From: a virus
Taxonomy: Duplodnaviria; Caudoviricetes
Reading direction: 5' to 3' (one strand)
Virus record (IMG/VR): IMGVR_UViG_3300020576_002947
Span: 32,001 to 96,000 of that record
DNA: 64,000 nt
The notes beneath the pieces are model-generated. The model ran no database searches and had not been told where the DNA came from. It worked only from the letters and a program-made list of their open reading frames with translations. The position numbers and the translations under genes were made by a program. The stretch's first letter is position 1, and each line of letters opens with the position of its first letter. Below, in pieces: positions 1,078 to 36,267 of this stretch.

Positions 1078-4026
1078 ATGGATGTAAATTCACGAATTTT
1101 ATCAGATCTTACAGTATATACTAAATATGCTAATTATATCCCTGAAAAGGATCGAAGGGAAACTTATGACGAAATTGTAACAAGAAATAAAGACTACTGG
1201 CTCTCAAAGTATCCAGATCTTAGTGCTGATATTGAAGAGGCTTATAAGCTAGTTTATGATAGAAAGGTGCTTCCAAGCATGAGGTCTATGCAGTTTGCAG
1301 GACCAGCTATGGACAAGTCACCTGTTAGAGTATTTAACTGTAGCTATTGTCCTATAGATGACTATAGGTCATTCTCTGAAATAATGTTCTTACTTCTCTC
1401 TGGAGTAGGCGTAGGCTTTTCTGTACAACAGCATCATGTTGAGAATTTGCCAAGTCTATCAAATCCAAAGATGTCACGCAAGTTTATTATTGCAGACTCA
1501 ATAGAAGGCTGGAGTGACGCTGTAAAAGCTTTGATGAAGGCTTATATGGTGCCAGGTAAAACTTTGCCTAGGTTTATCTACTCAGAGATTAGGCCAAAGG
1601 GTGCAAAGATCTCTTCGGGTGGATGGGCACCAGGCCCTGAACCTCTTCGACTTGCACTAGAGCATGTAAACTCTATTCTGAGAGCTGCTCTTACAGAGCG
1701 TGGCGATGGTACTAAACTAAAGCCTCTTGAAGCACACGACATTATTTGTATTCTGTCAAATGCTGTCTTAGCTGGTGGAGTGCGAAGAAGTGCCTTAATT
1801 AGCCTATTCTCACCACAGGATAATGAGATGCTTAACTCAAAGCATCGAGATGAGCTTGAAGGAAAGGAGTGGCGCTATCGAGCGAACAACTCAGCAGTTC
1901 TTCTTAGATCAGAAGTTACTGAAGATCAATTTAGGGATATCTGGGCAAGAACCGAAGCTTCTAATAGCGGAGAGCCTGGAATTATCTTTACAAATAATCT
2001 TGACTACGGTGTAAACCCATGCCTTCCTGGTGACGAAACAGTTCTTACATCAGAAGGTATAGTTTATATTAAAGACTTGGTTAGTAAGCCTTTTAATACT
2101 ATTATTAATAACCAAGAGTATACCTCTACAGCAGAAGGGTTTTTCTCTACAGGAACTCAACCTGTTTATGAAATTACTACGAAAGAAGGTTATAAACTTA
2201 GAGCTACTTCCAATCACCTAATTCGAACCTCTCAAAAATCAGGTAGAAAATCAAGAGAAGATAGTTGGGTAAAGTTAGGAGACCTAGGTTCAGGAACAAA
2301 AATTGTACTTAGTAACTCATCTAAAACTAATTGGGGTGGAAAGGGATCGTTTGATGATGGCTGGCTAATGGGTAGTCTTCTCGGAGATGGTACTTTCTAT
2401 AAGAATACTGCTTATCTATGCTACTGGACAGAACACGAGCATCAAGTAGGTATATCAAAAGCTAAATCTGTCCTTAAAACACGTTCGGATTTTGGACAAG
2501 GTTTAGGCTATAAAGGTAAACACCAAAACGGCTCAGTTGATTTATTAGAAAAAGCTATAGAATTCGGTATTCCAGCTTCTAAAACTTTAGATAATACTAA
2601 ATGTGAAATTGGTACATCATCTGAATTCTACAAAGGGTTCCTACAAGGGTGGTTTGATGCTGATGGTACTGTTATTGGAAATCAGCTAAAAGGAGTTTCT
2701 GTGCGCCTTGCATCTAGTATTAAATCCAATCTAGAGATTGCTCAAAGAATGCTTTTAAGACAAGGTATTGTTTCTACTCTTTATCCGCGAAAGAAAGCAG
2801 GGTTTTCTGTTTTACCTGACGGAAAAGGAGGGTCAAAACCCTACGCGACTAAAGCTATGTGGGAATTGGTAATTTCAGGAGAGAACTTAAGAACGTTTTC
2901 TGAGCGGATTGGATTTTCCCATAAAGACAAAGTTGCAAGACTTTCTCAACTTCTTGCAAATTACAAGAGAAATCTTAATCAAGAGGAATATTTAGCCACA
3001 GTAGGAAGTATTGAACTTATTGGCAACTTACCAGTGTATGATTGTACAATACCTGAGATTAGTGCTTTTGAAGCCTCAGGTGTTATAGTACATAATTGTT
3101 CAGAGATTTCGTTGAGACCTTATCAACTATGTAATCTAACAGAGGTTAATGTAAGTAGTCTGGATGACCAGAATGACTTAAATAACCGAGTATGGGCTGC
3201 AGCTTTGATCGGTACTTTACAAGCAAGTCTTACTGACTTTCATTATCTAAGACCAATCTGGCAAAAGACAGTAGAAGAGGATGCTCTTCTAGGTGTTAGT
3301 TTTACTGGTATTGGTAGTGAAGCAGTCTTATCATATGATATAGAAGAAGCAGCTCGAGTAGTTATTGATACTAACACAAGAGTTGCCAAAGCAATCGGTA
3401 TTAACCCCTCAGCAAGAATGACATGTGTCAAACCGAGTGGATCAACCTCAATTGTTATGGGTACTTCTTCAGGTATTCATGCTTGGTATGCTCCTTATTA
3501 TCTACGTCGCGTTAGAATGCGAATGGATGAACCTCTGTCTCAGTACCTGCTTAAGAACCACCCTGAGATTGTAGAAGAGAGCGTTGAAAAGCCAACTGAG
3601 GAAATCATTACAGTTGTTCCTATTAAGGCTCCTGAAGGATCTAAGTTCACACATGAGGACCTTCTTACTTCATATCTTCCAAGATTGAAGAGGATCACAG
3701 AAGACTGGATTTGGCCTACTCACAGGCGTGGCGATAACACTCATAATGTTTCAGCAACGATTCATGTTCCCCAAGGAGAATGGGAATCAGTAGTTGACTG
3801 GTTGTGGGAAAACAGAGATTTTTATCTTGGTGTAACTGCATATCCAGCCTATGATGCTGTGTACAAGCAGCCTCCATTTGAAGAGATTACTGAGGAAGAG
3901 TATAATAACCGAGTTAAGAACTTGAGAGAAGTAGACTTTTCTAAAATCATCGAAACGAAAGATCTTACAGCACTTGAAGAGCAGTCTGCGTGTGCTGGAG
4001 GAGCTTGCGAAATAACACATGTATAA
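1078..4026 (+). CDS. nrdJ: Class II (adenosylcobalamin-dependent) ribonucleotide reductase, intein-containing
   Basis: VLPSMRS, FNCSY, GVGVGFSV, GGVRRSALISL, GEPG, NP|CSEI after intein removal, LCNLTEV, TCVKPSGS, C-terminal CAGGAC. Confidence 0.95.
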   Translation: MDVNSRILSDLTVYTKYANYIPEKDRRETYDEIVTRNKDYWLSKYPDLSADIEEAYKLVYDRKVLPSMRSMQFAGPAMDKSPVRVFNCSYCPIDDYRSFSEIMFLLLSGVGVGFSVQQHHVENLPSLSNPKMSRKFIIADSIEGWSDAVKALMKAYMVPGKTLPRFIYSEIRPKGAKISSGGWAPGPEPLRLALEHVNSILRAALTERGDGTKLKPLEAHDIICILSNAVLAGGVRRSALISLFSPQDNEMLNSKHRDELEGKEWRYRANNSAVLLRSEVTEDQFRDIWARTEASNSGEPGIIFTNNLDYGVNPCLPGDETVLTSEGIVYIKDLVSKPFNTIINNQEYTSTAEGFFSTGTQPVYEITTKEGYKLRATSNHLIRTSQKSGRKSREDSWVKLGDLGSGTKIVLSNSSKTNWGGKGSFDDGWLMGSLLGDGTFYKNTAYLCYWTEHEHQVGISKAKSVLKTRSDFGQGLGYKGKHQNGSVDLLEKAIEFGIPASKTLDNTKCEIGTSSEFYKGFLQGWFDADGTVIGNQLKGVSVRLASSIKSNLEIAQRMLLRQGIVSTLYPRKKAGFSVLPDGKGGSKPYATKAMWELVISGENLRTFSERIGFSHKDKVARLSQLLANYKRNLNQEEYLATVGSIELIGNLPVYDCTIPEISAFEASGVIVHNCSEISLRPYQLCNLTEVNVSSLDDQNDLNNRVWAAALIGTLQASLTDFHYLRPIWQKTVEEDALLGVSFTGIGSEAVLSYDIEEAARVVIDTNTRVAKAIGINPSARMTCVKPSGSTSIVMGTSSGIHAWYAPYYLRRVRMRMDEPLSQYLLKNHPEIVEESVEKPTEEIITVVPIKAPEGSKFTHEDLLTSYLPRLKRITEDWIWPTHRRGDNTHNVSATIHVPQGEWESVVDWLWENRDFYLGVTAYPAYDAVYKQPPFEEITEEEYNNRVKNLREVDFSKIIETKDLTALEEQSACAGGACEITHV
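2020..3096 (+). mobile_element. Intein with LAGLIDADG homing endonuclease in NrdJ (359 aa)
   Basis: Starts CLPGDETV, block B ATSNHLI, LMGSLLGDG and FLQGWFDADG motifs, ends VYDCT...VIVHN followed by Cys. Confidence 0.95.
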
Positions 4027-4039
4027 ATAAAAAAATACT

Positions 4040-4089
4040 AGGGATAAGTAATAAGAGGTAGTCGAAAGCTAACTCTTATTACCTTCCCT
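4040..4089 (+). promoter_or_regulatory. Long hairpin with GAAA tetraloop downstream of nrdJ
   Basis: AGGGA/TCCCT outer stem, GTAATAAGAG/CTCTTATTAC 10 bp, TAG/CTA and C-GAAA-G cap. Confidence 0.6.
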
Positions 4090-4114
4090 GCGGACAGGAA
4101 AAAGAAAGACATCC

Positions 4115-4894: not shown

Positions 4895-4971
4895 AAATAG
4901 AATTGAAGGGTAAGGCCGTCCCTCAAGGACTTATAATCCCTTCTCTTGTTCGGTGAAAACCGGAGACGACT

Positions 4972-5364: not shown

Positions 5365-5382
5365 GGCTCTAACGACAAGTAT

Positions 5383-5420
5383 GCTGTCAGCCCTCAAAAG
5401 CTGACAGCTCGATTTTCTTT
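5383..5420 (+). terminator. Probable intrinsic terminator/attenuator after Ubl gene
   Basis: GCTGTCAGC/GCTGACAGC 9-bp stem, 8-nt loop, followed by TCGATTTTCTTT. Confidence 0.6.
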
Positions 5421-5444
5421 CCTGGACGACGAGTGGGATAAAAA

Positions 5445-5490
5445 GGGGGCAGACCATTGGGGTGGGTCTGCCCCCGCGACGAGTCACCCC
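5445..5490 (+). ncRNA. Candidate H-type pseudoknot cis-RNA element
   Basis: GGGGGCAGACC/GGTCTGCCCCC 11 bp; loop GGGGTG (5459-5464) complementary to downstream CACCCC (5485-5490). Confidence 0.5.
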
Positions 5491-5519
5491 TCTACTGACG
5501 CAATTGTCAGACAGCTACA

Positions 5520-6320
5520 ATGCTTCCTGAATTCTCCACAAGGCATAAAGCTATTCCTAGCGGTACTTGGGTTAACCATTACTGCGATTTATCAGATCCT
5601 TCCAAAGAAACCATCAAGTTGATGAAGACTGCGGAGGAATATTTCAATCAATCTATCAAAGATCTTTGGGGTCTCCCAGTTACAAAGTTTGGGTGTCGAG
5701 ACCTTGTCTATTTCTCTGACATTGGCACTGTTGACAGCATGGCTCACATGCTCAACATTAACAATGGTAATCAGGTTGAGATTATCCAGCAGCACCTTGA
5801 CATGACCAAGCCTTGGATTCTTCCTAAGCTTGAGAAGTTTTGGAAAGCTCGTGGTAAGACTGAGCTGGATTTCTTTAACAAGGTTCTCACTACGGGCCAG
5901 TATTCCTCATTTGGCGCACCCCGCCTTATGTGGGCTAATAGATCATTCTATGGCAGTGTTAAGATTGGTGGAAACAATCTTGATCTGTACTTTATGAATA
6001 AGGAAATGTTGCTAGATACCCTGACCTTTTTTAGGACAGACTGGGCAACTGAATTATTCCAAGAGCAGATTAAGCCTTTTGAATGGTTCTATACTGTTAA
6101 CAACGTTCAGTGCGAAAGGACTTGTATTGGCAATGATGGTAATAAGATTCAGAGTCTTCAATCTCCTGCGTCGAGACCTATTGATCTCCAGCTTTGGTTG
6201 GCATCATGGGGCACGAACATGCTGAAGGCTACCTTTAACCATAACAACACAAAAGTTGTCCAGTATAACAGTAATCAGGCTAAGGTCACTGAGGCCTTGC
6301 TTGCAGGACTGAAAAAGTGA
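5520..6320 (+). CDS. Putative prokaryotic E2-like conjugating enzyme (E2 family D / PRTRC-B-like)
   Basis: KPF...NNVQCERTCIGN resembles P..NV....C.G and W...ATFNH resembles the F..S.F[NT]H tail; stop overlaps ThiF start. Confidence 0.55.
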   Translation: MLPEFSTRHKAIPSGTWVNHYCDLSDPSKETIKLMKTAEEYFNQSIKDLWGLPVTKFGCRDLVYFSDIGTVDSMAHMLNINNGNQVEIIQQHLDMTKPWILPKLEKFWKARGKTELDFFNKVLTTGQYSSFGAPRLMWANRSFYGSVKIGGNNLDLYFMNKEMLLDTLTFFRTDWATELFQEQIKPFEWFYTVNNVQCERTCIGNDGNKIQSLQSPASRPIDLQLWLASWGTNMLKATFNHNNTKVVQYNSNQAKVTEALLAGLKK

Positions 6321-7102
6321 GACATGTTATTGTTGTCGGAGCCGGGGCGGTCGGCTCCGCCTTTATCCAAGAGCTTTCAAAGTTCTGTCTTTCAAACCAT
6401 ATCCATACTACAGCCCATCTTTATGATTTTGATGATATTGAAGAACGAAACTGTGCTGCACAGTGCTTCGATGCCAGAGAGATCGGAGGATTAAAAGCTG
6501 TTGTTTGTTCTGAGAAGTTCTCAAACGAATACCTTACTATTACCCCATACAAGGAGTATGTTGACGCTAAAGTTATCGAGTCCTGGAAAACTCTTGATTG
6601 GTATGACAATGATATAGTCATTGTCGATGGTGTTGATAATCTAAAAACAAGAAAGCTGCTTTGGATGGAAGGCTTTATGTGTGACTTCAAGGTCATGCAT
6701 CTTGCCCTATCTGCCGAAGGTTTTGGCCTTGTTAACTGGAACTTCGGCACAGACAATACCTATTGCTATGACTTTAGCATTATCGGTGAGGATGAAATCG
6801 AGAAGAGGGATGAAGCTGCAAAGAACGCTGAGAAGCTTCCTCCTTGTGAATTGAACAAGCATCGTCACATGATGTTTAGTGTTGGTTTATCAGGAACCCA
6901 CTCTCTTATGAACTACTGGGGTATTCCAGACGAATGTCTTATTACCAAGTTGCTGGAAGAGCATGGTGTAAGATTTATCCCTAAACTTCTTTTCTCTTTC
7001 AGAACAACAATGGATCGAATTGAACTACTTTTGGGAGAAGGTCAAGTTATCAATACTGAACCTACAGAGCCAAATGGCGAAGAAGCAGCAAAGGAGAATT
7101 AA
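6317..7102 (+). CDS. ThiF/MoeB/E1-like adenylyltransferase
   Basis: GAGAVG, DFDDIEERNCAAQ, GGLKA, DGVDNLKTR; candidate catalytic Cys in KLPPCEL; GTG start. Confidence 0.9.
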   Translation: MRHVIVVGAGAVGSAFIQELSKFCLSNHIHTTAHLYDFDDIEERNCAAQCFDAREIGGLKAVVCSEKFSNEYLTITPYKEYVDAKVIESWKTLDWYDNDIVIVDGVDNLKTRKLLWMEGFMCDFKVMHLALSAEGFGLVNWNFGTDNTYCYDFSIIGEDEIEKRDEAAKNAEKLPPCELNKHRHMMFSVGLSGTHSLMNYWGIPDECLITKLLEEHGVRFIPKLLFSFRTTMDRIELLLGEGQVINTEPTEPNGEEAAKEN

Positions 7103-7109
7103 GAAAGAG

Positions 7110-9734
7110 ATGTCCCACTGGGCAGGAAACAACAATAATAACTATAACGGGGACAACAGAATCACGGTCGTCGGTCTTGACAAAACTGTTCTTGGTGAAG
7201 TCTTATGCTTTCCTTATGAATTCAACAACATTAAAGCAGTTTTCCAAGAAGAAGACACCAGGGTTCCTGGTGTCTACAAGGAACTCAATGCCAAGCATAT
7301 TGAGATCGTTATGCCTGCTGACTACATCCAGTGGAAAGCAAAGTCAGGCAAGACGGTTGCTATGTGCGCCTTTAATGCTAGCATGGGATTTATCAGCTGC
7401 AATCTGGGCAAACGACTAGATGGAGCTGATGAAGCCTGGTACAAAGCTATTCCTCAGACACATGCTGAGGGATTAAGAGAGGGGGCAACCTTCGATGTTA
7501 TTCAGGAACTGGTCCGACCTTACGGTATCGGCATTTCTGAAATCTGGGTCAGGAGCGACAAGTTCCTTAATCCAGATCTTGACAAGTGGAGGGAGTATCT
7601 CCCAGCTAACCCACTTTTTAACTTTTCTGATCCTAATGGAAGCTCTGCAGGTCTTACTGACAAGGAAGCTCTTGCAAACCCATTAGCTGATATGTTTGTT
7701 GATGAGAAAGATACCTGGAGAATGCACAGGATCAAGGGGCATGAGTCATTGGACGGCCCCCTTATCTATATGCGTGGTGGTGCTTCTGCAGCAGGTGGTG
7801 GTGGTCATGCTACCTATATCGGTCCTAGGTGGTCAGATAAGAACTTCGATTATGCCATTCGTCTTGATCACCTCTCCAATATCAATTACATAAAGGTACC
7901 TGATCCTATTGACACTACGGTGGAAATGGATATCAACTTGCCTGAGTCTTATCTGGTTAAGTCTACCGACGGGAATGTAAAGGTGAAAGACCTATACCCA
8001 AAAGGAGTGACTTATTCCCACAACAATCCTTATCAGAGTGGTGGGACGAACAGCTCGGCACACACGGTTACTATTTCTAGCACCGCGGATGAGGTAATAA
8101 AATTTATGTTTACTGCCGCTCCTGGTGCAGGAGTTTATTCGTCTGACTATAACAAGATGAAGTCTATGTTTTCTCAAGCGTTTAAGGGGGATTTCGAAGC
8201 TGTCTTCAGCATCGATAAACCTAGTTCATATACCAAGGACTTTTTCCCTCTTATAGCATCATTGAATAAAATGTTTCTTCTGCCTACTGATTTAGACCAG
8301 CTTGAGAAAGCATCGGCTATTTTCAGTAAGCAGCCTGCTGATCTAGGAGACTTTAGACTTAGTCCTGAAACCAAGGAAAATCCATACCCAACTCAGATTA
8401 GGGCTTGGATGGACAAGGTTAAGACTACAATTGACAAGAAGGAAATGTCATTGTATGGCTTATGGTCAGTCTATGTCTTCTTTAATATGTACTTCAATGC
8501 TCTTACTGAGGCTAGCATTAAGAAACTTTATGGAGATAAGCTTGGCCTTATGAGAGTTCTCTCAACATGGGCAATAGACTATGCTCTTAAAGTAGAACTT
8601 GCTGCTGGTGTCGAAGCAAAAGTAAAACTCATTACTGTTGAACCAGCAGAAAAGAAAGTTGCTACTATTGCTAAGAAATCAGACTTCCTTGCTATTGGAG
8701 GAATTAAGACTGCGGCTGAATTCAATCAGAGGCTTACACAATTAGCTGGAGAGGGTGTCATTCAGGAACATCTTTCCAAGACTGATATTGCAAGCTTTAC
8801 CATGATTGATGACGCTATCAAGGCTGTTCGAACCAAGTTGCTGAAGAACAAGTCTGCTGATATAGTACCTGAGTGTATTCTTGGTCAAGACTTCGGGGAG
8901 TATGATCTCATCATTTCCAAATGTGTTGAAGGCCGAAGAAAGCTAACTCGTATTGCGAGTGAAAAGCTTTTTGAGTCTATGCAATCTGTTTGGAAAGGCA
9001 AGAATGACATGCCTCCTGCTGACCTGTGTACTTTCCAGGCAGCTATGCTTATTACTAGCTGGTTCTGCAAGCCAGCTTTTGCTCATGCTGTATCCCTGTA
9101 CAGTTTCTTTGCGACAAAAACGCAAAGCACTGCTATTGTGAAGGACTACACTGAAACAAAGCTTGGGCATAACGACATGTTCAAGGCTTTTGTGGGAGTA
9201 CTTCGATCTATCCACACTGCTTACAAGGATGGCACTCTTGGACCTACTCTAGATCCAGGCATCAAGCTGTCCCAAGAAACTGAGCAGGTCCTTAGGATCT
9301 ATATGGTTCCTCCTTCTCCTGAGGTTGCAAAACTTCTTGAAGCTGTTATTCAGAACAGCGAAGAAGGCTATATGAGGTGGGTTGACAAGCAGGTCCTTGC
9401 TGACTGGAAACTCACTGGACCTCAGAACTTTATCGAACTTGATTGCAAGAAAGGAAACTTCTGGAACATTACCAATAGTAGTCCTTCCGATGCGATCTTC
9501 TTCCTTACTCTCTATGCCGCAGTAGTTCTTGCAGTTGATCAGAATGAGAATGAAGAAAGCCTTAGGCTCTTCACCCATAGTCTGTTCACTGAGTACGAGA
9601 ACTGCTTGGTTAGGGATGTCACCGAAGATATTTCTAAGGTTATCTTCATTGAGGATACTATCGAAACAGTAGCCGCCTTCCCCTGGAGTGTCTACGGCTA
9701 CATTACCGCACTTCTCAACAAGAAGGTTCGGTAG
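7110..9734 (+). CDS. Large protein with possible N-terminal papain-like Cys peptidase domain (start may be 7074)
   Basis: About 875 aa; AMCAFNASMG helix-start Cys and GGGGHATYI His-strand pattern; remainder unrecognised. Confidence 0.45.
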   Translation: MSHWAGNNNNNYNGDNRITVVGLDKTVLGEVLCFPYEFNNIKAVFQEEDTRVPGVYKELNAKHIEIVMPADYIQWKAKSGKTVAMCAFNASMGFISCNLGKRLDGADEAWYKAIPQTHAEGLREGATFDVIQELVRPYGIGISEIWVRSDKFLNPDLDKWREYLPANPLFNFSDPNGSSAGLTDKEALANPLADMFVDEKDTWRMHRIKGHESLDGPLIYMRGGASAAGGGGHATYIGPRWSDKNFDYAIRLDHLSNINYIKVPDPIDTTVEMDINLPESYLVKSTDGNVKVKDLYPKGVTYSHNNPYQSGGTNSSAHTVTISSTADEVIKFMFTAAPGAGVYSSDYNKMKSMFSQAFKGDFEAVFSIDKPSSYTKDFFPLIASLNKMFLLPTDLDQLEKASAIFSKQPADLGDFRLSPETKENPYPTQIRAWMDKVKTTIDKKEMSLYGLWSVYVFFNMYFNALTEASIKKLYGDKLGLMRVLSTWAIDYALKVELAAGVEAKVKLITVEPAEKKVATIAKKSDFLAIGGIKTAAEFNQRLTQLAGEGVIQEHLSKTDIASFTMIDDAIKAVRTKLLKNKSADIVPECILGQDFGEYDLIISKCVEGRRKLTRIASEKLFESMQSVWKGKNDMPPADLCTFQAAMLITSWFCKPAFAHAVSLYSFFATKTQSTAIVKDYTETKLGHNDMFKAFVGVLRSIHTAYKDGTLGPTLDPGIKLSQETEQVLRIYMVPPSPEVAKLLEAVIQNSEEGYMRWVDKQVLADWKLTGPQNFIELDCKKGNFWNITNSSPSDAIFFLTLYAAVVLAVDQNENEESLRLFTHSLFTEYENCLVRDVTEDISKVIFIEDTIETVAAFPWSVYGYITALLNKKVR

Positions 9735-10804
9735 TTTAAGAGCTTATCCTTATTTCTTCTTGATACTATAGGGGACAAGAACCTGTAAAGGCGTCCCCTA
9801 TAGTGTTTAAACCATTTGGTGCTGATTTGGGTATTGAATGGAAGATATAGTGGTTCGTACTCTTTAAAGAATTGAAAAGTAGGTACATCACTATTCAAAA
9901 TTAGGGGAATTTTTGCTTGGATGGCCTCCAGTACAATTAAAGAAAAGCTCTCTGAAGTTGAGGGCATTATAAATAAATTACTAATATCTAGCAAAGATCT
10001 TACTGTTTCATGATCTGTAGTGATTTTAAACTGTTCAGAGACCTGAGACATAAAGATCATATTAGAATAACCTTTAATACTAGTTTCAATATCTTTACAG
10101 TTGTCCATTAAAACTAACTGTTGGATAGTAGTTGCATAAGAGTTAGGAACAATTAGAAGAGTCTTCCATTTAAAAGTCTTTTCTATTAAACTTAGTAGAA
10201 AAACTATTTTGTGTATACCTTTGAATTCAGCAATTCTTGTAGGATACACACAAACAAGGTCATATTTATTTAAATCATAATTATCGTACAAACACCTAAC
10301 CATAGGATTTTTAGGTGGTTTAGTAAAATGAGGTAAAACAATAACCTCCTCCTCTGGTACTGAATATCTTTCTGAGATACCCTTCACCATGTAAGGAGTT
10401 AAAGCTACATAGACCGCGTTTGGGTATGGTTGGTAGTTTAGTCCAGTATACTGCTGTCCAGTCAAACTATGACTCCACACAATGAATTTAACACTTGGAT
10501 TAAGGCGCCTTATTGCATAATTAAGGTGCATAAATCCTTCAATAAAAAACACATCATGGATTAAGCAAACTTCAACACCCAAAAAACATTCGGTAAGAGA
10601 CTCCTTTACTCGTTGGTAGTACTCTTCCAATCCCTCTGAAGTAATCCATCTTGGAAACATCCGAACTTCGTTAACCACGCTCTCTTTAAAATCTGAAGTT
10701 GTGATTAAGGTAGCCTCTGGAAAAACATCTAATTGGTTTTCTACGATTTGTGCTACACTATAACTCTTTTCAAACTTAGAGATTGGGCAAAGAATAGCAG
10801 TCAT
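9698..10804 (-). CDS. Glycosyltransferase, GT-B fold (GT4-like)
   Basis: YPTRIAEFKGI, NLFIMPSTSESFSLIVLEAIQAKIPLI GT4 motif; lone - strand gene in region. Confidence 0.88.
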   Translation of the reverse strand: MTAILCPISKFEKSYSVAQIVENQLDVFPEATLITTSDFKESVVNEVRMFPRWITSEGLEEYYQRVKESLTECFLGVEVCLIHDVFFIEGFMHLNYAIRRLNPSVKFIVWSHSLTGQQYTGLNYQPYPNAVYVALTPYMVKGISERYSVPEEEVIVLPHFTKPPKNPMVRCLYDNYDLNKYDLVCVYPTRIAEFKGIHKIVFLLSLIEKTFKWKTLLIVPNSYATTIQQLVLMDNCKDIETSIKGYSNMIFMSQVSEQFKITTDHETVRSLLDISNLFIMPSTSESFSLIVLEAIQAKIPLILNSDVPTFQFFKEYEPLYLPFNTQISTKWFKHYRGRLYRFLSPIVSRRNKDKLLNYRTFLLRSAVM

Positions 10805-10824: not shown

Positions 10825-11931
10825 ATGGAACAATACCTTTCAACAAACAGAATTAAAGGGGATATCCCAACTATTATAGAATTAGGGGGAGAAGAAATTG
10901 AAATTCCTTCGACTCTTCAAAAGAATCTTTCTACTGTATCTTTAGACAGCAAGAACGCAGTAGTACGAAGTACTTTTATTTCTCCTGTTCTTGGAAGTAT
11001 ATTTAACTCCAGCAGGTTTGAAGATCCTGACATTAAGTTTGCTGAACTGAACAAAGCTCTGAAACTTTTAGACGAGTTAATTAGTAACTTTGTAAAAGAA
11101 TCTATTCTCAAGAGATCTCATAATCTAGGATTCAGTGCCTTTGCTCAGTCACATGAGAATGTAGGCGTTGATGAGGTAATGATATCTTCTGAGAGTTTTA
11201 AAGAACTCGTTAGATATAACAGCAATTGGTCTAAGTGTAGAAAAGTTGTTGTAGTTCGGTATCCTAATCTAGGGCCACAAACTACTATCGAGCTTAATCT
11301 GGTTATCCAGCAATCTAACAGACCTGGTGGAGAAATCAAATCAAAGTTAGGTTGCGTTTGGCTTAATCAAGCTGTTCTGAAGAACTGTCTTGAAGGCGAC
11401 GCAGATGGTGATATGATCTTTTGTAGCTTCAGTAAAAAAGGAACTCCTCTAATCCAAGACGTTCCTTTAGAAAGAAGCCAAGGTTCAATCACAGATAGCG
11501 ATATTAAACTTCTTATTAAAAAGTCTTTGGTAAACAAGGATCTTAATGAAGCAGAATACCTTGCTGCTCAGATTGATCATGTACCAATTGACAAAGCTAC
11601 CTATATTATTAGGTGGCTACTGTACCTTAAATCTCTTCAGTACACTAATGAATATCAGCCATTGAACAAAGCTTGGGAGGATATTGCTCCTGAAGCAATC
11701 AAGTTAGTTGAATTTGTCATGGACATTAGAAAAGGCGATTTTTCTAAAGAAGAGATTAAACAAAAGCTTGAATATATTGATAAAGTTTATCTTAATATTC
11801 AGATTCAGAAGTCTAAAGGACATTGGTTTGCAAAGACCGTTACCTCAGGAAAAATTCAGGACATTGAAAAGTTTCTTGAAACATTCCCTACTTCTCAATC
11901 CTACTTAGATTATTGTCAGAGAATAGAATAA
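10825..11931 (+). CDS. Minimal RNA polymerase beta'-like subunit (catalytic double-psi barrel)
   Basis: VVVVRYPNL (RxP motif) followed by LEGDADGDMI (DxDGD metal-binding loop). Confidence 0.72.
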   Translation: MEQYLSTNRIKGDIPTIIELGGEEIEIPSTLQKNLSTVSLDSKNAVVRSTFISPVLGSIFNSSRFEDPDIKFAELNKALKLLDELISNFVKESILKRSHNLGFSAFAQSHENVGVDEVMISSESFKELVRYNSNWSKCRKVVVVRYPNLGPQTTIELNLVIQQSNRPGGEIKSKLGCVWLNQAVLKNCLEGDADGDMIFCSFSKKGTPLIQDVPLERSQGSITDSDIKLLIKKSLVNKDLNEAEYLAAQIDHVPIDKATYIIRWLLYLKSLQYTNEYQPLNKAWEDIAPEAIKLVEFVMDIRKGDFSKEEIKQKLEYIDKVYLNIQIQKSKGHWFAKTVTSGKIQDIEKFLETFPTSQSYLDYCQRIE

Positions 11932-12164
11932 TGATCAGAGTTCCTCTTAACAATCCTATTAATTACAAAGATTCTTTATACACCGAAGTATTTTGCAGTG
12001 CAAACAGTTCACTAGGCAGAGCCTATTTATTAGGTCTGTCTATTCAACCTGCACAAACATTTAAAGCTATACTACCTGATAGCAGCAAAACTCCGGTTGA
12101 GGTTTACTGCGAAGGTCGGCAGTTTTTAGGGAAAGTACAATGGCCTGCACCATCAAAAAAGTAA
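11931..12164 (+). CDS. Small hypothetical protein between the RNAP-like subunits
   Basis: TAATG coupling to upstream gene; overlaps next gene start. Confidence 0.55.
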   Translation: MIRVPLNNPINYKDSLYTEVFCSANSSLGRAYLLGLSIQPAQTFKAILPDSSKTPVEVYCEGRQFLGKVQWPAPSKK

Positions 12165-13513
12165 AGAGTGGTTATTACAGTCAGTTCTATATCACTGTAA
12201 CTAAAGGAGATATTACCACCGAGTCCCCCACTACGGCAATACCTCCGACCATTATATTTAACGACAAAGGTTTTAAGATTCAAACTCTTGCTGATTTGGA
12301 GAAGGGTATCAAGAAGCATAACTACTTTGCAGGTAGTAAGGATTTTACCCAAGATAGAATCAACAACCTTACAGTTTCCCAGTATACGAAACATTTCTCA
12401 TCGTACCCTATTATTGAGAGGGAAGTAATCAACGGCAAGTGGGAAAACCATAAAGTTTCTGAGTTCCTTGCTCGAAGTTATGTTCTACTGGAACCTACCC
12501 AAGAGTACCAGGAAAAGCTTGCTAAGATGCCTTTTGTTGAGGCTGGGGAAGAGAAGGCAAAGCTGTTGGTAAAGCTACGCCCTTATATTGAGCAGAAACT
12601 AGAGCATAAGCTCGACTTCTATTCAATTCCTAAAAGGGATATCTCACAAAGAGTTTATCTTGCTGACAAAAACGGAACAGCTTTTATTGCAAAGCTTTTA
12701 TCTTTCGGCTTTCATAACGCCATCCCATGTAACCGAATTGTTCGAGAAGCAGGTTCTTTACGACAAGCGGAACGGTTTGCTAATCCATATCAACCTGTCA
12801 AAGTACACTCGGTTATTGAACCTTATACAACCTTTCTAAAGGTTGCTATTGTCAAGACTAGTCAGTCAATGCTTGACGGAGGGGATTTGTTCCCTTCAGG
12901 CCAAAAGAAAGTAGGTTCCGTTCTTCAGACAATCAAGCTTTTGCCTGATGTTGAAGATTTGAATCAACCTGATTTGGTTTATCGTCCAAACCAAGCCGGC
13001 CTAGATGTTTGGAGACAGGAGTTAATTTCATACGATGAAGTTAACGAAGGTACAGGTCCATGCAGATTAGTACTTCCAGGAGGAGTCAAAATATGTACGA
13101 GTCCTTCACCAATCCAACCACACTATCAAGATGAACCTATCGACCTTCTGTTAGACTTTACTACTTTAACAGCGAAAGGAGCTTTGGCTCTGTTTGCTAT
13201 GGTTAACGAAGATAGTTTCTCTTCTATTTGGGATTATGCTCAAGTTCTTGAAGTATTCAAATCACGAAAGCTCCAAGAGTTTAAGTATGGTTCTAAGACT
13301 CTTACAGGCTACATTTGTCTTATCCCTGTCATGAGACCGAGACAGAGACACATGGAGATTTGTAAACCTAGAAACGATATTTCGTTAGATATAGTAAGCC
13401 ACGCTATCTTAAATCAACGAATGGTTACATCCTCTTTTGTTGAGAACGAGTATCAAAGTTTAAGAAAATTTAGAAACTCTCTTGCTAATGAGATTTCACA
13501 AATAACAGGCTAA
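12140..13513 (+). CDS. Minimal RNA polymerase beta-like subunit (second double-psi barrel)
   Basis: LKVAIV...MLDGG (cf. VA...NFEDS), RLVLPGGVKI (cf. KxxGRHGNKG), DEPIDLLLD (cf. GTPVDIVLN). Confidence 0.6.
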   Translation: MACTIKKVKSGYYSQFYITVTKGDITTESPTTAIPPTIIFNDKGFKIQTLADLEKGIKKHNYFAGSKDFTQDRINNLTVSQYTKHFSSYPIIEREVINGKWENHKVSEFLARSYVLLEPTQEYQEKLAKMPFVEAGEEKAKLLVKLRPYIEQKLEHKLDFYSIPKRDISQRVYLADKNGTAFIAKLLSFGFHNAIPCNRIVREAGSLRQAERFANPYQPVKVHSVIEPYTTFLKVAIVKTSQSMLDGGDLFPSGQKKVGSVLQTIKLLPDVEDLNQPDLVYRPNQAGLDVWRQELISYDEVNEGTGPCRLVLPGGVKICTSPSPIQPHYQDEPIDLLLDFTTLTAKGALALFAMVNEDSFSSIWDYAQVLEVFKSRKLQEFKYGSKTLTGYICLIPVMRPRQRHMEICKPRNDISLDIVSHAILNQRMVTSSFVENEYQSLRKFRNSLANEISQITG

Positions 13514-14730: not shown

Positions 14731-15038
14731 TGATCTTTGCTCATATTGGCAAGGTCATAGATATACAAGACAGAGAGTTTAAATGCAGAGATATTACTAC
14801 CGATGAAGTGTTTAGTCTTCATTGGACAGGAAAAGAATCTATTGCTGACTTACAAGATCAAACTTGTATTATCTATGGTGAGGTAAAAAGAGGTAAGTTC
14901 AATGCTGTACGTCTAGATATGAACAGATTTCTTACACCACTTTATGAAAACCATTTGGTTACAAATGTAATCAGTGCCCTTAAAGACCTTGAAGATAATC
15001 CATTCGACGACTTATACGAGAAATATTCCAGACTATGA
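14730..15038 (+). CDS. Small OB-fold-like protein
   Basis: IGKVIDI...CIIYGEV....AVRL strand pattern; coupled to helicase gene. Confidence 0.4.
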   Translation: MIFAHIGKVIDIQDREFKCRDITTDEVFSLHWTGKESIADLQDQTCIIYGEVKRGKFNAVRLDMNRFLTPLYENHLVTNVISALKDLEDNPFDDLYEKYSRL

Positions 15039-16141
15039 TTTCTAATAACCCGTACGCACAAGACAATACGAAAAATGTGCAACAAATAATCTCTGCAGAT
15101 AATGGACAGTTTTATGAAAACTATCTTAATGAAGTAGAGAAACTTGAAGACAAGAACAAGAAGAGGAAAGGTCCATCACTACAATGGATCGTAGAACACG
15201 AGCCTATTACTGGCCCCTTCCTGCCCTTTGTAGGGGTCTCTTCGTTATGTAAGGCCCTAAGTGACTACGACTCTGGTTTGCTTCTAATAGCAGGCCATGC
15301 TAACGCTGGTAAGAGTACTTTCATGGTTCATACCATGATGGACTTAATTTTTAATCCATTAAATACAGATCTAGTTGTTATTGACCTTTCTCTTGATGAC
15401 CCAATGGGTAAGAGATGGGAGCAGTATGTAGCTAATAGATCTGGGCTTTGTTATAGTGATATCCACCAAATGGGTGCAATGAGCCCTTATGTTGTGAAGT
15501 CATATTACCACGCAAGAGACTCTATTCTGGAAATGATTAAGCAAGGCAGGTTCTGGCCTTTAAATGCTTATCACAGCATTAGAGACGTAAAGGGTGATTA
15601 TAGGACCATGAACATTGGTACCTATACCTCCTTTGAGAGGCTCTTAAAGGGAGCAAGAGAGAAGTTTCCTAACCCAGATACTAAGATTGTAATCTTCGTT
15701 GATGCTTGGCAGGATGTTAAACTCTCTGCTACTGAAATGTACCAAATAGATGAGTACATTAGGGAACTTGCACAGTTAGCTCATAAGCTTGAGATAATGA
15801 TTGTAGGATCAGCCCACTTTAGAAAGCTAGGTGCTAAGTCCGAACCTGAGCCCGAAGACATCAGAGGATCATTAGAAGTTCACTACGCTGCTTCAGCAAC
15901 GTTCATTCTAAGAAACGACTATAAAGAAAATCCTGACAACTTCCTTAGGGCTGAAGAGGATGACTTTACAGGACCAATTATCAGACTAGAGGTACCAAAG
16001 AATAAAGTATCTATCGAAGATAGAACTATGTTCTATGGATTAGAGTCTGGCAGATGTCAACTATATCCATTCACAAGTAGTCAGTACGCTAAGTATGTTG
16101 ACTCTTGGGAAACACTTAAGAAGGACCGTCGTAAGAGATAG
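15035..16141 (+). CDS. SF4 DnaB-like replicative helicase
   Basis: GHANAGKS Walker A, SLDD, FVD Walker B, HFRK, DIRGS..V...A, KNK. Confidence 0.88.
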   Translation: MISNNPYAQDNTKNVQQIISADNGQFYENYLNEVEKLEDKNKKRKGPSLQWIVEHEPITGPFLPFVGVSSLCKALSDYDSGLLLIAGHANAGKSTFMVHTMMDLIFNPLNTDLVVIDLSLDDPMGKRWEQYVANRSGLCYSDIHQMGAMSPYVVKSYYHARDSILEMIKQGRFWPLNAYHSIRDVKGDYRTMNIGTYTSFERLLKGAREKFPNPDTKIVIFVDAWQDVKLSATEMYQIDEYIRELAQLAHKLEIMIVGSAHFRKLGAKSEPEPEDIRGSLEVHYAASATFILRNDYKENPDNFLRAEEDDFTGPIIRLEVPKNKVSIEDRTMFYGLESGRCQLYPFTSSQYAKYVDSWETLKKDRRKR

Positions 16142-17692: not shown

Positions 17693-18165
17693 AAGAAGAG
17701 TTCTGGAAGGTTTCTGAGAGAAAGGTTAGAGAGGCACTACGGCCTTACTTCAAAACAATGGCTACCCCAGGTAGTGGAAACAAAGGTCTTAAGAGCGATG
17801 TTCTTCTATGTGACAGTGACATAGCTGTTGAAGTAAAGTCTACTATTAATACAGATCATTTTACTATTGAAAGTAAATGGTTTGTAAAGCTTCTAGGTTA
17901 CTACTATGGAAAGAAGACACCTATGTTTGCCTTTACCTGGTGGCCTGATGGTATGGTTTTTTATTGTTTAGAAGATTATACCTTTATTACAAGTAGAGAA
18001 GAACAGTGGAAGACATTAAAGGTTAAAGGCGATCCTTTAAGTACTGATGATTTTCCTGATACTATTATTATAGACTTACTTCAAAACAAGCTATTTGCCC
18101 ATAAAATGAGATTTGTTTTTAAGAAAGTTACAAACGCAGCAGAAACTAAAAATTATGAGCCTTAA
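17689..18165 (+). CDS. PD-(D/E)xK nuclease, Hjc-like Holliday junction resolvase
   Basis: ER.V, TPGSG, SDV, AVEVKST, I...W. Confidence 0.8.
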   Translation: MKEEFWKVSERKVREALRPYFKTMATPGSGNKGLKSDVLLCDSDIAVEVKSTINTDHFTIESKWFVKLLGYYYGKKTPMFAFTWWPDGMVFYCLEDYTFITSREEQWKTLKVKGDPLSTDDFPDTIIIDLLQNKLFAHKMRFVFKKVTNAAETKNYEP

Positions 18166-19165
18166 AAGTATAACTCTGGAAGATCTTGGTGAGCACATAG
18201 GAACTAAAGGTCAGTCTGAACTCTATGAGTGTCCTAATTGTGGTCATAAGGTTCATGTAAACTTAGAACTAGGTCTTTTAAACTGCTTCTTTTGTGGTTT
18301 TGGTAAGGGTCTTATTCTTAAAGGGTACTCGAATACTAATCTCGTTAAGAGAGAGTACAACAAATTTCTTCCTGAGTTTACTAATAAGCTTCTACCGCAC
18401 CTTAGCCTTCTACCTTACGAAAGAAAGTTTGTGGAAGGAAAAGGTATTCTAGATCCTAGTCGGTTTAATATCTGTAGTATACCAACAGATATCAGAACTA
18501 TTTTAAAAGATGTTTTTGGTGATGAAATCTATAACTACAACATTCTCTCTAAGACTGGCGGACTCCCTGCAGTTTTAAAGCCAGGAAGAGTATTTATTCC
18601 TTACTATGGTTTTAAGAGTAAACCATCACTAGTCTCATTTAAAACTAGATCTACTCCGTATTTAGATGCTGTTGCTGGAGACTACGATAGTATTAGGTAC
18701 TTAGCTCCTAAGGATAGTATTCATTATAATTATCTATATAAACCTACGAAGATTCCGAAAACAGATTCTGTAATAATTACAGAAGGCGAGTTTAAAACTA
18801 TTGTTTGTAATCAATTTAACTATCCATGTTTAGGATTACCTGGTATAGGTATTGCTAAACCACTAGAAAATATAATATTAAAATTAGCTGAACAGGTTAG
18901 TTATTTGTATTTGATTCTAGACTCTGACCAAAACACTTTTAATTTTTCAGGAGCTATTAAACAGTATATTAAATTTGGAAAGGTACTGAATATAATTCCA
19001 GTTCTTCTTCCCTTAGAAGGTAGTACTAAAATGGGTCTAGATGACTACTTACTAAGTCACTCGTTACAAGACTTTGATGAGCTGCTTGAGGAGTTTAGAA
19101 TGAAGAAACAACACTACATGAAATCTTTTGAAGAGACATATGCACCCAATCCTAGAAGAGATTAG
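18155..19165 (+). CDS. DNA primase (Zn finger + TOPRIM)
   Basis: CPNC...H...CFFC, IITEGEFK, LPGI, LDSD, GLDDY. Confidence 0.88.
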   Translation: MSLKSITLEDLGEHIGTKGQSELYECPNCGHKVHVNLELGLLNCFFCGFGKGLILKGYSNTNLVKREYNKFLPEFTNKLLPHLSLLPYERKFVEGKGILDPSRFNICSIPTDIRTILKDVFGDEIYNYNILSKTGGLPAVLKPGRVFIPYYGFKSKPSLVSFKTRSTPYLDAVAGDYDSIRYLAPKDSIHYNYLYKPTKIPKTDSVIITEGEFKTIVCNQFNYPCLGLPGIGIAKPLENIILKLAEQVSYLYLILDSDQNTFNFSGAIKQYIKFGKVLNIIPVLLPLEGSTKMGLDDYLLSHSLQDFDELLEEFRMKKQHYMKSFEETYAPNPRRD

Positions 19166-20129
19166 TACATTTTTAGGCAACAAAAAATTAACACATACTT
19201 ATCTACCACCAAGAGGTAAGACAGAATCGAATAGATTTGACATCTTATTTGGTAAGGATTTAAAGCATTCATTTACTCATGACACTAGTTTAACACCAGA
19301 AGAGTTTTTTAAATCTTATTGGGAATTAAGAATTAGCGAGTGCAAAGACTGTGTTCTTTATAAGACCAGGAACCATGTGGTTTATCCTGACGGTCATTTC
19401 AATGCTCCTATTATGGTAGTCTTAGAAGGGCCTGGCTTCCTAGAGGACCTAAGTAAGACCCCGCTAGTATCTGCTTTAGAACTTAGAAATAGTCACTGTA
19501 ATTCATGTGAAAAGATTCATCAATGCTACTCTTCAAGACTTATCCAAACTGGAAAGATCTGGCCTATTGATAAGAAGAAGGCTGTGGTTTGTGAACCTAA
19601 ATATGTAGACGACGGGAACTTTTTAGGTGTACAAAAGTACATTAGATCTACTGGTACTATTGTAGACGGAATTCTACTAGATTTGTATGGTCTTAAGTAT
19701 CCTAGGTATAGCTGGAATCGAGAGATTCAGACAAGCCCTTGGTTTATAACTAACGTAGCACTTTGTAGATCCTGGAATCAACTCTCGTTTGATGACGAAA
19801 CACCACACGAGTCTTCGTTAAGAGAGTGTTTCAAATGGTTTGTTTTATCTTATTTTACAGTAAAGCCTAAGGTTACTATAGTACTAGGTCGTGTTGCTGG
19901 TAGAGCAATTCTTAGTATACCTAAACAAAAACTATCTAAAGAACTAAACCCTAATCAAATCTACGACAGTGCTTTTGGTAAGGTAATTTATAATACGCAC
20001 CCAGCACATATTATGCGTAGTTCAAGTGAGGAAGTTAAAGCCTCTCTTTACGCAAGATTAGGTGCTACATTTAGAATAGGACTTGAAGAAGCTGGACTAG
20101 AGATTAGGACAGACAGAATAATAGTATGA
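19140..20129 (+). CDS. Uracil-DNA glycosylase family 4 with Cys-rich insertion
   Basis: CKDCVL, VLEGPG..E, ITNVALCR, REC, LGRVA, THPAH. Confidence 0.85.
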   Translation: MHPILEEISTFLGNKKLTHTYLPPRGKTESNRFDILFGKDLKHSFTHDTSLTPEEFFKSYWELRISECKDCVLYKTRNHVVYPDGHFNAPIMVVLEGPGFLEDLSKTPLVSALELRNSHCNSCEKIHQCYSSRLIQTGKIWPIDKKKAVVCEPKYVDDGNFLGVQKYIRSTGTIVDGILLDLYGLKYPRYSWNREIQTSPWFITNVALCRSWNQLSFDDETPHESSLRECFKWFVLSYFTVKPKVTIVLGRVAGRAILSIPKQKLSKELNPNQIYDSAFGKVIYNTHPAHIMRSSSEEVKASLYARLGATFRIGLEEAGLEIRTDRIIV

Positions 20130-20719
20130 AATTAAAAGCAGTTCACAATTATATTTTAGCAAAGCAACTACCGATGCCTGAAGGAATCTTCCTTCCTCCA
20201 AACACTGTGCAGCAGTGGGTAGAAATTATTTCAGTAGGCCCAGGAACTTATAGTCCATACGGTAAGTTAATACCATTGCCCTTTAAAGAAGGTGATATTG
20301 TCTGTGCTATGAGGCACGGAATGGTTGGACTAAAGTCGTATGAAAAGATTCTAACTGAAGATCAAGTATTTCTTATTGTCGAGTTTGATGTTATGGCAGT
20401 TTTAACAAATAAAGAATTAGGTGAAATCTCACCTTTATATAATAACCTACTTATCGAGCCTGATACAAATGAAGTAGAAACTGAGTCTGGGTTGTTACTA
20501 CCTGAACGAAGGGCTACTCCTATTAATACAGGCACTGTTATCAAGCTAGGCACAGGATGGATTAATGCTGATGGAAGTATTATTCCCTGGCAAGTAGCTG
20601 CAGGTGATAGAGTATTCTACGATCCTTCAAGAACAATGAAGGTTGATTTGAAGACATTTGGTATTGATAAACAGTACCTTCTAGTAAGCCATTCTGATAT
20701 TATGGCTATAATTGAGTAA
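20126..20719 (+). CDS. groES: Co-chaperonin with two tandem GroES domains
   Basis: Domain 1 LKAVHNYIL..GIFLP..SVGPG..EGD.V..DVMAV; domain 2 PLYNNLLI..TESGLLLP..G.V..LGTG..GDRV..DIMAII. Confidence 0.85.
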   Translation: MKLKAVHNYILAKQLPMPEGIFLPPNTVQQWVEIISVGPGTYSPYGKLIPLPFKEGDIVCAMRHGMVGLKSYEKILTEDQVFLIVEFDVMAVLTNKELGEISPLYNNLLIEPDTNEVETESGLLLPERRATPINTGTVIKLGTGWINADGSIIPWQVAAGDRVFYDPSRTMKVDLKTFGIDKQYLLVSHSDIMAIIE

Positions 20720-25630: not shown

Positions 25631-28600
25631 ATGCAACAAGCTTTAGATGCTATTTACAAAGATTATCCTTATCAACTAAAACTAGCAGGAGAGTGTAATG
25701 ACGCTAATGGAAACTTTCTAGGACGTTACCTATTCTTTCCAGACTCAAGATACCAAGAACAGTTAGACGAGTTTATGGACTGTTTTATTAAAACAGCTAA
25801 AATACACGACTCTAACGACTATGGTTTCAACCTTACTATAGACCTAGAAACACAAGGTCTATATCCACATTTATCAAAGATCATTCTAATATCTATTTCT
25901 TGGGATGAAGATTCTTCTATAGTATTTGTACCGGAGAACTTTGACTTAACTAAGTTTAAAGAGGTACTAAGGCTTGTCTTAATTGACAATCAGAATCTCA
26001 AATTTGATGTCAAGTTTCTATGGCACCACTATGGTGTTGAACCTAAACCAAGAATTTGTACACAAGAAGCTGCTAAACTAAACTACTGTGGTTATAGTGA
26101 TATGAACAGGTTTAATCTAGCTGACTTGTCTAGACTAATCCAAAGTATACCGATAACTAAAGAAATAAGGAACGATTTCATTACAATGGTTCCTCAAAAG
26201 CTAGAGAATGGTTATACAGCTTGGGTAGGTAAAACACCTGACTTCCCAAGTCTTAATGATGACCATATCGCTTACGCTGCTCGTGATACAATTGTTACTA
26301 AAAGATTAGTCCGTAGTGTTGCAGACCGTCTTGTTACAAATGATTTGTACAAGGTCTGGAACAATCAGGAGAGAAAGTTAATCAATATTCTAGCTCATAC
26401 TGAACTAATAGGTCTTCGACTTAATGAAAAAGAAGTTGAGAGTGCCAAGGCTGTAGCTCAAGAAACAGTTGCAACTAATTACGGTAAGATGATTAGTCTT
26501 TATGATGAGTTTGGTTCTAACGCAACCAAAGAATATGTAATTGCTAAGGGTACGAAGAAGAACCCTGGTAAGTTTAATATTAATTCTACCCAACAGGTGC
26601 AAAGATTCTTAAGAGATTTACATATCATGGTTCGTGGTACTGCCAAAGAGGAAGTTAACAAAGCACTTAATGATCTGGAAGCTGGATCTTCAGGCTACGA
26701 ATTCTTAACAGCACTTAAGAACTATAAGAAAGCTAATGATTTAATTACTAAGTATTTAGACTCCTGGACTATAAGAGTTAAGGAGATGGGTGATAATAGA
26801 ATTCATCCAAGCTATAACTTGATTACACCAGACGCTGGTACTGGACGACTCTGCTTAGATAAAGATAGTCTTATTCTACTAAAGGACAAGCAGACTAAGA
26901 AGATCTCTGAAGCTTTGATTGGGGATGAAGTATACACTCATAAGGGTAGATTTCGACCTATTAGCAGAGTAATCTTCAAGGGCGAAGAGGAGATGTTCAA
27001 AGTAACTTACTATGAAGGACACTTCATTAGTACTGCTGAACATAAGGTATTAACTACAGAAGGATGGAGAAATCTATCAGCCTGTACGAAAGGTACTTTT
27101 GTAATTGGATATACAATAAACAAAGGCTTCTATCAGACTAGGATCAATAAGATTGAGTCTGTTGGAGTTAGAGAAGTTTGGGATATCACTGTTGATGATG
27201 ATCATTCATACTTAGCTTCTACTGAGGGTGGATATGTTGTTCACCATAACTCAGCAGAAGGCTTTAATGTTATGGCTGTTGATAAAAGTTTAAGATCTAT
27301 TGTACAAGCTGATGAAGGTTGTATGATTGCATCTTTAGACTATTCTCAGTTCGAGCTAAGAAGTATTGCTGCTAATGCAAATGAAGAAGGTATGCTTAAA
27401 CTCTTCTTTGAAAGAGCTGCATTGCTAACTGATGTTGAAGAAGTAGCTTTGAAGTATGGTTTTATAGATCCAGACTCTTTTGCAGAAAAGTCAGAAACAC
27501 TAGGACTATCTGCCGGAGAGCTAGAGCTTTGCCATAACTTCTCAAATACTGACGTACACAGATCTAATGCTGCACTAATATTCAAAAAGCCAGTCTTTGA
27601 AGTAACTACCAAAGAAAGGAACATTGCTAAGTGTGTAGCAGGTGACACGTATATTAAGACTCAGAAAGGTCTTGTACAGATTCGTGACCTCTTTCCTAAG
27701 AAGCTTGTTCCAGACACATACTATAAAGCACCTAAAGGCTTGAAGGTAATGGATGATGCTAGTAAGTACCAAGACGTTGCTCAACTTTACTATAATGGTG
27801 AAGGAGATGCTGTTAAGATTACGTTTACTAGTGGAAGAACTATTACAAGTAGTGTAAATCATAGGTTCAGGTACTCACCAAAGAATCTGAGATATGACTG
27901 GATCTATGCATCTGATGTTAGAAAAGGAACTAAGTTGTTTACCAAGACAACTAATGAACCTATAGTTAAAGATCGTTACTATACCTTAGGACTTCTATCA
28001 GGACTGCTAGACTTTGTTGACACAGTAACTAAATACGGCAAGCAAACATATGAAGCAGAGTTCTTCGTAACACCTGGCAAACAGAAGGAAGCTCTCAAAC
28101 TCTTTATGGAGATTGGAATGAAGATGGATATTGAGCCAAGAAAACTTACCTATGTAGGTAAGGAAGCTGCTCAGTTCATTGATATCCAGTTTGAAACTGA
28201 GGAGAATAGAAGAAGCTTTTTAGCTGGTAGCTTTGAAGGTCATAAGTACTTTGCTTTGTCTTCTAGGAATGATTTCATATGTGAAAACTTACGAGACATG
28301 CTATTAGGAAGCTCTTTTGGTTTGGGTATAGGACCTATCAAGACTAGAAACAATACTGCAGAGTTCTCTCATTTTTATAGTAAGTATCTATTTACTAATG
28401 AAATTCCCTCTGATAAAGACTATTGGAGAGCAGCACTTAATGTTCTTGAAGATAGAAAAATCCTTAAAGGAGAGACAATAGATGAGCTTGTAGTAAGTGC
28501 TTCTACTTTGCTAGATAAAGAACAATCTGATTTCTTTATTACAAATGGACTGTATCTTGACACTGTCGAAAGTGTTGAATACTGTACAGTACCTTTGTTT

Positions 28601-36109: not shown

Positions 36110-36267
36110 TGGTACCATCCCCTTGTATTAAAAAGTGCATACTTGATAAGGGCGAAGTATGCACTGGCTGCTTTAGAACATTATTTGAGATTGTTAAATG
36201 GTCCTATTATAGTGACGAAGAAAAACAATCGGTATTAGATAGAATACAAAAGAGCAAAGAAGAATGA
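36109..36267 (+). CDS. DUF1289-family small Cys-rich (Fe-S/Zn) protein (52 aa, not in ORF track)
   Basis: SPCIKKC......CTGCFRT..EI..W; TAATG and ATGA overlaps with neighbours. Confidence 0.85.
   Translation: MVPSPCIKKCILDKGEVCTGCFRTLFEIVKWSYYSDEEKQSVLDRIQKSKEE

Follow-up and report, generated by a model that had tools for sequence, protein, structure and literature searches.

Within a 64,000-nucleotide stretch of the genome of an uncultured phage (hereafter the window; C1:32001-96000 of the 239,691-bp virus record G000, CheckV completeness 94%), two neighbouring genes encode a β′-like and a β-like protein that belong to a conserved family, so far unnamed, of miniature RNA polymerases (RNAPs) with two subunits. 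It is almost certain that both chains are of the two-barrel RNAP type and make up a two-barrel heterodimer. That the pair is an active, gene-transcribing RNAP is quite probable and that it is a non-virion transcription enzyme is likely, whereas its assignment to middle and/or late phage genes is an even call. The β fold, conservation, gene order and predicted pairing were computed; we infer catalysis, processivity, non-virion status, target genes and sigma partnership. Together the two chains comprise 825 residues (94 kDa), and a short open reading frame (ORF) lies between their genes:

10825-11931, plus strand: β′-like subunit, 368 aa, 41.9 kDa, with an N-terminal helix, a switch-2-like segment, barrel A and a helical C-terminal half
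11931-12164, plus strand: orphan ORF between the β′-like and β-like genes, 77 aa from ATG or 83 aa from TTG
12140-13513, plus strand: β-like subunit, 457 aa, 52.0 kDa, with barrel B, a flap in the form of a hairpin of about 40 residues and a C-terminal helix that packs on β′

The first-pass annotation, made from the letters of the window, had located these ORFs and quoted motifs from them, and the ORF coordinates and translations bear this out: the β′-like chain carries R145-x-P147 and D192-x-D194-G-D196, and the β-like chain carries V235-A236, D246, R309, K317, D335/D339 and K346. A phmmer search for β′-like homologues without a length limit returned 35 matches, one of them a repeat artefact, and the true homologues are all 455 aa or shorter. 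Across 22 full-length homologues with identities of 26-39%, R145, P147, D192, D194 and D196 never vary; these residues include the DxDGD motif, whose conservation had been named beforehand as one of the points on which the reading would stand or fall. R145 and P147 are kept in all 31 rows that cover them. For the β-like chain we gathered 17 members, with individual columns covered by 16-17 of them, and found D246, K317, D339, K346 and R399 invariant in every covering homologue. D246 corresponds to the barrel-B aspartate (Rpb2 D837, β D814; 17/17), K317 to the second lysine (β K1073; 16/16) and K346 to E. coli R1106. About 350 residues of this single chain, which begins near E. coli β residue 124, can be aligned across β 124-1244. 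Relative to a 98%-identical strain, the β′-like gene differs by 18 synonymous and 3 non-synonymous changes, and the β-like gene by 27 synonymous changes and a single non-synonymous one. The Atlas's own model of the β′-like chain (predicted template modelling score 0.46) gave template modelling scores of 0.54-0.60 to Rpb1/β′ clusters and a feature score of 0.96 to phage clusters resembling RNA-dependent RNA polymerase (RdRP), and β′-like residues 132-207 aligned with an actinophage RdRP-like barrel (HHalign probability 79%, E 1.6e-5). An Atlas search with the β-like chain was uninformative, and folding it from a single sequence gave a low-confidence model (predicted local distance difference test, pLDDT, 31). 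The homologue conservation, the Atlas and fold comparisons and the E. coli β alignment uphold the identification of both chains as two-barrel RNAP subunits.

Pfam, PHROG, NCBIfam and Protein Data Bank (PDB) sequence searches gave no significant match for either protein, and PHROG matched only a few relatives weakly (phrog_2986, RNAP β, best E 0.001; phrog_4291). Single-protein scans of viral contigs gave no match, no close homologue was found in cultured phages, and no longer fused form of the two chains was found, which is weak evidence. The literature searched, with subscription journals outside its coverage, gave no description of the family. The suggestion of a new lineage is supported, in the sense of an unnamed family. 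The top viral fold match of the β-like chain was BFVD A0A172Q0S6 (E 8e-8), which is uncharacterised, 798 aa long and possibly an unannotated RNAP; its source, Acinetobacter phage ME3, is a cultured phage.

Co-folding of the two chains with Mg gave an interaction prediction score from aligned errors (ipSAE) of 0.86; of three controls, the highest-scoring reached 0.00. The result speaks for compatibility and not for binding, because the two parts of a textbook complex can reach a high score through resemblance. The ipSAE mark was calibrated on solved complexes, 58 of 80 of which reach it, and on mismatched pairs, of which 2 of 110 do. At least 89% of contacts are common to the runs, and the partner pLDDT is at least 87. 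The interface takes in the β′ Asp loop (191-197) and β residues 246, 309, 317, 346 and 402; its best-defined contacts join the β C-terminal helix (435-448) to β′ 75-89 and 356-357, as expected for a clamp base, and suggest that the 368-aa chain spans β′ from start to end. A double-psi barrel is predicted in each chain, with one joint site, so that the composite active site proposed at first holds in the model. In barrel A, D192, D194 and D196 would hold the catalytic Mg2+ and R145 would touch the ribose of the nucleoside triphosphate (NTP); in barrel B, D246 would serve the second metal, and R309, K317 and K346 the RNA and NTP phosphates. The helical C-terminal half of the β′-like chain is a putative bridge, trigger and clamp base. 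The β C-terminal helix, resting on the β′ N- and C-terminal helices, would form a minimal clamp base, apparently in place of an alpha/omega scaffold. PF01000 detected no alpha subunit in the 94%-complete genome, and Pfam detected no separate β′ C-terminal half, both with low sensitivity for proteins this divergent; omega was not searched for.

Both genes occur in fourteen distinct relatives, several on contigs of 146-245 kb, and the annotated β′-before-β order holds in all of them as in the window. The neighbouring genes that bear on function are the following:

9698-10804, minus strand: GT4 glycosyltransferase, head-to-head with the β′-like gene and 20 bp from its start
15035-16141, plus strand: DnaB-like helicase, part of the context, found 3′ of the pair in five relatives too
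18113-19165, plus strand: Zn-finger/TOPRIM-type DNA primase, a separate gene (phrog_47, E 1.7e-15), 4.6 kb 3′ of the pair

The proposal that the pair leads a helicase/primase operon is not supported by comparison with the relatives. The pair looks like an operon start only because the opposite strand carries an inserted glycosyltransferase gene at a distance of 20 bp; several relatives that lack this gene have the pair inside a longer plus-strand run, and in L008 and L017-L019, among others, a ThiF-family gene, a homologue of a 904-aa protein and then the pair form one such run. Minus-strand genes lie near the same site in L009, L016 and L020 as well. In the window the ThiF-family gene and the gene for the 904-aa protein lie at 6317-9734, and eight relatives keep this duo 5′ of their RNAP genes. 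On its 5′ side are short intergenic stretches with strong hairpins (window 4027-4114, 4895-4971 and 5365-5519), possible terminators or regulatory RNA. Directly 3′ of β, most relatives have genes for a MoxR-type ATPase and for a DUF2201 protein. The window has a similar pair, an AAA ATPase with a DUF2201 protein, at 36264-38983; it is perhaps a chaperone system. A conserved protein of about 110-150 aa, a candidate accessory factor, is encoded 5′ of β′ in seven relatives and is absent from G000:

L004:3476-3856, L006:3422-3805, L011:6576-6953, L013:7610-7945, L014:86-463, L016:7537-7989, L025:6952-7335: conserved upstream protein

L025 (CAYLNC010000003.1) is a member of the phage family on a contig binned as a Saccharibacteria metagenome-assembled genome, which is likely a mis-binning or a host hint; the label concerns a single contig and was not used as host evidence. 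In L004 (6799-7629), and likewise in L005, the DxDGD codons of the β′-like gene are interrupted by an insertion of 831 nt that contains a LAGLIDADG ORF. The insertion starts after U and ends in G, and its removal restores the motif and the open frame. Judged by its ends, its LAGLIDADG ORF and the restored frame, it is probably a group I intron; Rfam did not detect it. Homing introns favour essential conserved sites.

The start of the 77-aa ORF overlaps the β′-like stop (TAATG), and its 3′ end shares 25 nt with the β-like gene. At the same place 10 of the 14 relatives have a gene for a CxC...CxC Zn-ribbon protein of 73-250 aa, and the remaining four have no gene. It is possible, though clearly the lesser prospect, that the pair is the catalytic core of a larger complex needing the Zn-ribbon protein or the 77-aa ORF, a sigma factor, the 125-aa upstream protein or host subunits. 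The working enzyme would then not be minimal, and such a complex is compatible with a gene-transcribing RNAP. A larger complex would be in keeping with the frequent Zn-ribbon gene, with the gene overlaps, which suggest translational coupling, and with the enzymes of phiKZ and AR9, which require a fifth subunit to recognise promoters (PMC7598289). Four relatives nevertheless do without an intervening gene, neither an alpha subunit nor a β′ C-terminal half came to light in the low-sensitivity searches, and the two chains alone co-fold confidently in the model. The 77-aa ORF did not match the Zn-ribbon family (hidden Markov model 1.3 bits; HHalign 0.3%) and has no homologue at any relative's locus; in one strain pair it has 1 synonymous and 2 non-synonymous changes, small numbers that give no sign of constraint. 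With four relatives lacking any spacer gene, a three-chain enzyme that includes this ORF is not supported, and we do not count it as a subunit.

The points that weigh against a gene-transcribing enzyme concern its active site and the way it would be directed to genes. Eight residues have been called invariant in two-barrel RNAPs (PMC2919709). Seven are kept in the window pair and the eighth, K1065, is R309, in a register set by motif spacing and not by residue-level superposition (R309 and K317 are 8 residues apart, as are E. coli K1065 and K1073). This agrees with the earlier remark that one of two conserved lysines had become arginine. The site keeps a basic residue: 14 of 16 β-like members carry R at position 309 and two carry K. 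The E. coli K1065R enzyme is reported to make dinucleotides but not to elongate, and the yeast equivalent to be lethal (PMC2919709). Arginine as the family norm here is the oddest feature of the pair and the main support for a role in making short RNAs. The E813 residue is also mostly lost (L in 13 of 17), an acid that RdRP and YonO enzymes likewise lack, and the β′ R352 position is hydrophobic in the family. When the C-terminal part of β′ was compared by profile, neither a bridge helix nor a trigger loop was apparent in the sequence. Helices after barrel A resemble the RdRP-type bridge and trigger by eye only, and profile comparison did not confirm the similarity.

These changes raise the question of whether the pair is a natural 'K1065R' two-barrel polymerase that makes short RNAs or primers for phage DNA replication, for example at an origin, with arginine and the reduced clamp restricting it to abortive or short products and transcription left to two other RNAPs encoded by the phage. 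Its position 5′ of DnaB in the window and five relatives would suit such a role. However, the phage has a dedicated primase gene, as do relatives, the genes that follow β in most relatives are the MoxR-type ATPase and DUF2201 genes and not a helicase, sigma-like genes adjoin β′ in one subclade, and the two members with K indicate that K and R are interchangeable within the family. YonO, moreover, is processive though it lacks most conserved domains (PMC5467207). The separate primase and the sigma genes tell against the priming role first suggested, and we regard it as unlikely; if true, a cellular-type β/β′ core would have turned replication enzyme. The K-to-R and E-to-L changes and the missing trigger-loop signature could also fit a non-transcribing relic, a decoy or a DNA-synthesising, PolD-like two-barrel protein. 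This is hardly credible, given that the full metal-binding set is invariant across a family diverged to about 30% identity, that the ribose-contacting R-x-P is retained, that the β fold is RNAP-specific and that the phage encodes a DNA polymerase of family A.

As for direction to genes, an extracytoplasmic function (ECF)-like sigma gene lies directly 5′ of β′ in four relatives, which count as one event and not four because all form one well-supported subclade. G000 has two ECF-like sigma genes, at C1:220838-221404 (188 aa) and C1:221752-222366 (204 aa), about 7 kb after an 800-aa RNAP-like gene; the sigma_r4 model alone missed them and the r2 model found one. A phage ECF-like sigma would possibly direct the enzyme, but the modelled flap is too small for certainty of docking, and these sigmas could serve host RNAP instead. 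A sigma-70 promoter scan was at chance level, and genome-wide upstream k-mers yielded no convincing phage promoter motif. The 8-mer TTACATTA has 13 copies in G000 (for example at C1:74491, 196278, 223218 and 231085) and stands 5′ of five genes; it may be a -10-like element, chance also being possible. G000 further encodes two RNAP-like DxDGD ORFs, of 800 aa (C1:211536-213938, L002:8537-10939) and of 1552 aa without cysteine (C1:173004-177662, L001:8005-12663), each with β′ and then β parts in a single chain and with a K-x-P motif after DxDGD, so that the usual barrel order is reversed. Beside them, a third general transcription enzyme needs explaining. The 800-aa type is present in both related genomes searched, in G001 as two ORFs (213 + 593 aa, L027:446-2964), and the 1552-aa protein had no detected relative in these two genomes. 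The β half is colinear with the 800-aa family over 226 columns, at P 0.024 only. At least one further RNAP-like gene is present in each of the three genomes checked, and this points to a transcription programme with several polymerases; by analogy with P23-45, it could plausibly be a cascade that runs from a virion enzyme through an early one to a middle/late one.

The window also carries the replication genes of the phage (ribonucleotide reductase, DnaB, primase, family A DNA polymerase and RecA), and an 81-kb minus-strand block of large genes lies downstream of this replication block. A non-virion enzyme would be made after infection together with the replication genes and would transcribe middle and/or late phage genes. 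Its small size, and the compact, clamp-less virion RNAP of P23-45 (bioRxiv 2022.12.01.518664), could instead suggest a polymerase shrunk for passage through the tail and packaged in the virion. We find this distinctly unlikely, as the pair sits in the replication block and contains cysteine. Cysteine is absent, by contrast, from three giant proteins encoded within the structural block or beside it, one of which is the 1552-aa DxDGD protein. The other two, of 1786 aa (C1:136403-141763) and 2136 aa (C1:143337-149747), lie in the structural block and are possibly ejected proteins. Inteins are present in the ribonucleotide reductase (window 1078-4026, with LAGLIDADG) and the family A DNA polymerase (window 25631-29221), and a GroES-like protein (window 20126-20719) has two Cpn10 domains in one chain. 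Strain variants were found in freshwater and runoff metagenomes; no RNA dataset is among those listed, the single run labelled RNA being probably DNA.

E. coli RpoB and RpoC have 1342 and 1407 residues, so that the window pair, at 825 residues against 2749, is less than one third of the usual length of a cellular β/β′ core. It further differs from that core in having the β′ gene first, no alpha found, arginine for K1065, a hairpin flap without a sandwich-barrel hybrid motif, G-D-x-D-G-D in place of NADFDGD and no Rpb1/Rpb2 Pfam match. To describe it as split was an overstatement, since β and β′ are separate in cells as well, and so was 'bare core', given the extent of β that remains alignable and the single-chain phage enzymes that are as small or smaller. 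The pair is no size record among two-barrel RNAPs; we know of no smaller two-chain β/β′ enzyme, and none appeared in the literature searched. In the AR9 and phiKZ non-virion RNAPs (PDB 7s00 and 7ogp; PMC7598289, PMC7824862), β and β′ are split into four larger chains joined by gp68 or gp226, without sigma. The window phage, in contrast, has one small gene for each, ECF-like sigmas, a PolA replicase and no tubulin match; a gp68-like subunit was not searched for. SPβ YonO, crAss phi14:2 gp66, P23-45 gp64 and gp96, QDE-1 and the actinophage RdRP-like enzymes (CapnMurica gp87) are single-chain two-barrel RNAPs, unlike the two-chain window pair, although its barrel A aligns with the actinophage family and its Atlas features lead to phage clusters of the RdRP-like kind. 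In size it comes close to YonO (about 100 kDa; PMC5467207), and it exceeds the P23-45-type enzymes (gp96 active fragment, 798 aa; P74 gp62, 592 modelled residues). The mReC phage RNAPs (PMC7481178) likewise come from Caudovirales with β and β′ genes, but they are defined by COG0085/0086 matches, at least 800 aa and NADxDGD, and the window pair differs in length and motif. The pair would work like the cellular core and the AR9/phiKZ non-virion enzymes while being a member neither of those groups nor of the mReC or single-chain class. A family invisible to Pfam, PHROG and NCBIfam is missed by surveys of RNAP-encoding large phages. With the cellular fold kept in a 457-residue β, a 368-residue β′ and no alpha found, it offers a natural model of what the cellular β/β′ core needs, in two small genes of soluble size that allow direct co-expression and assay, and it poses the question of how arginine is tolerated where lysine has been called invariant and the same change cripples the E. 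coli and yeast enzymes.
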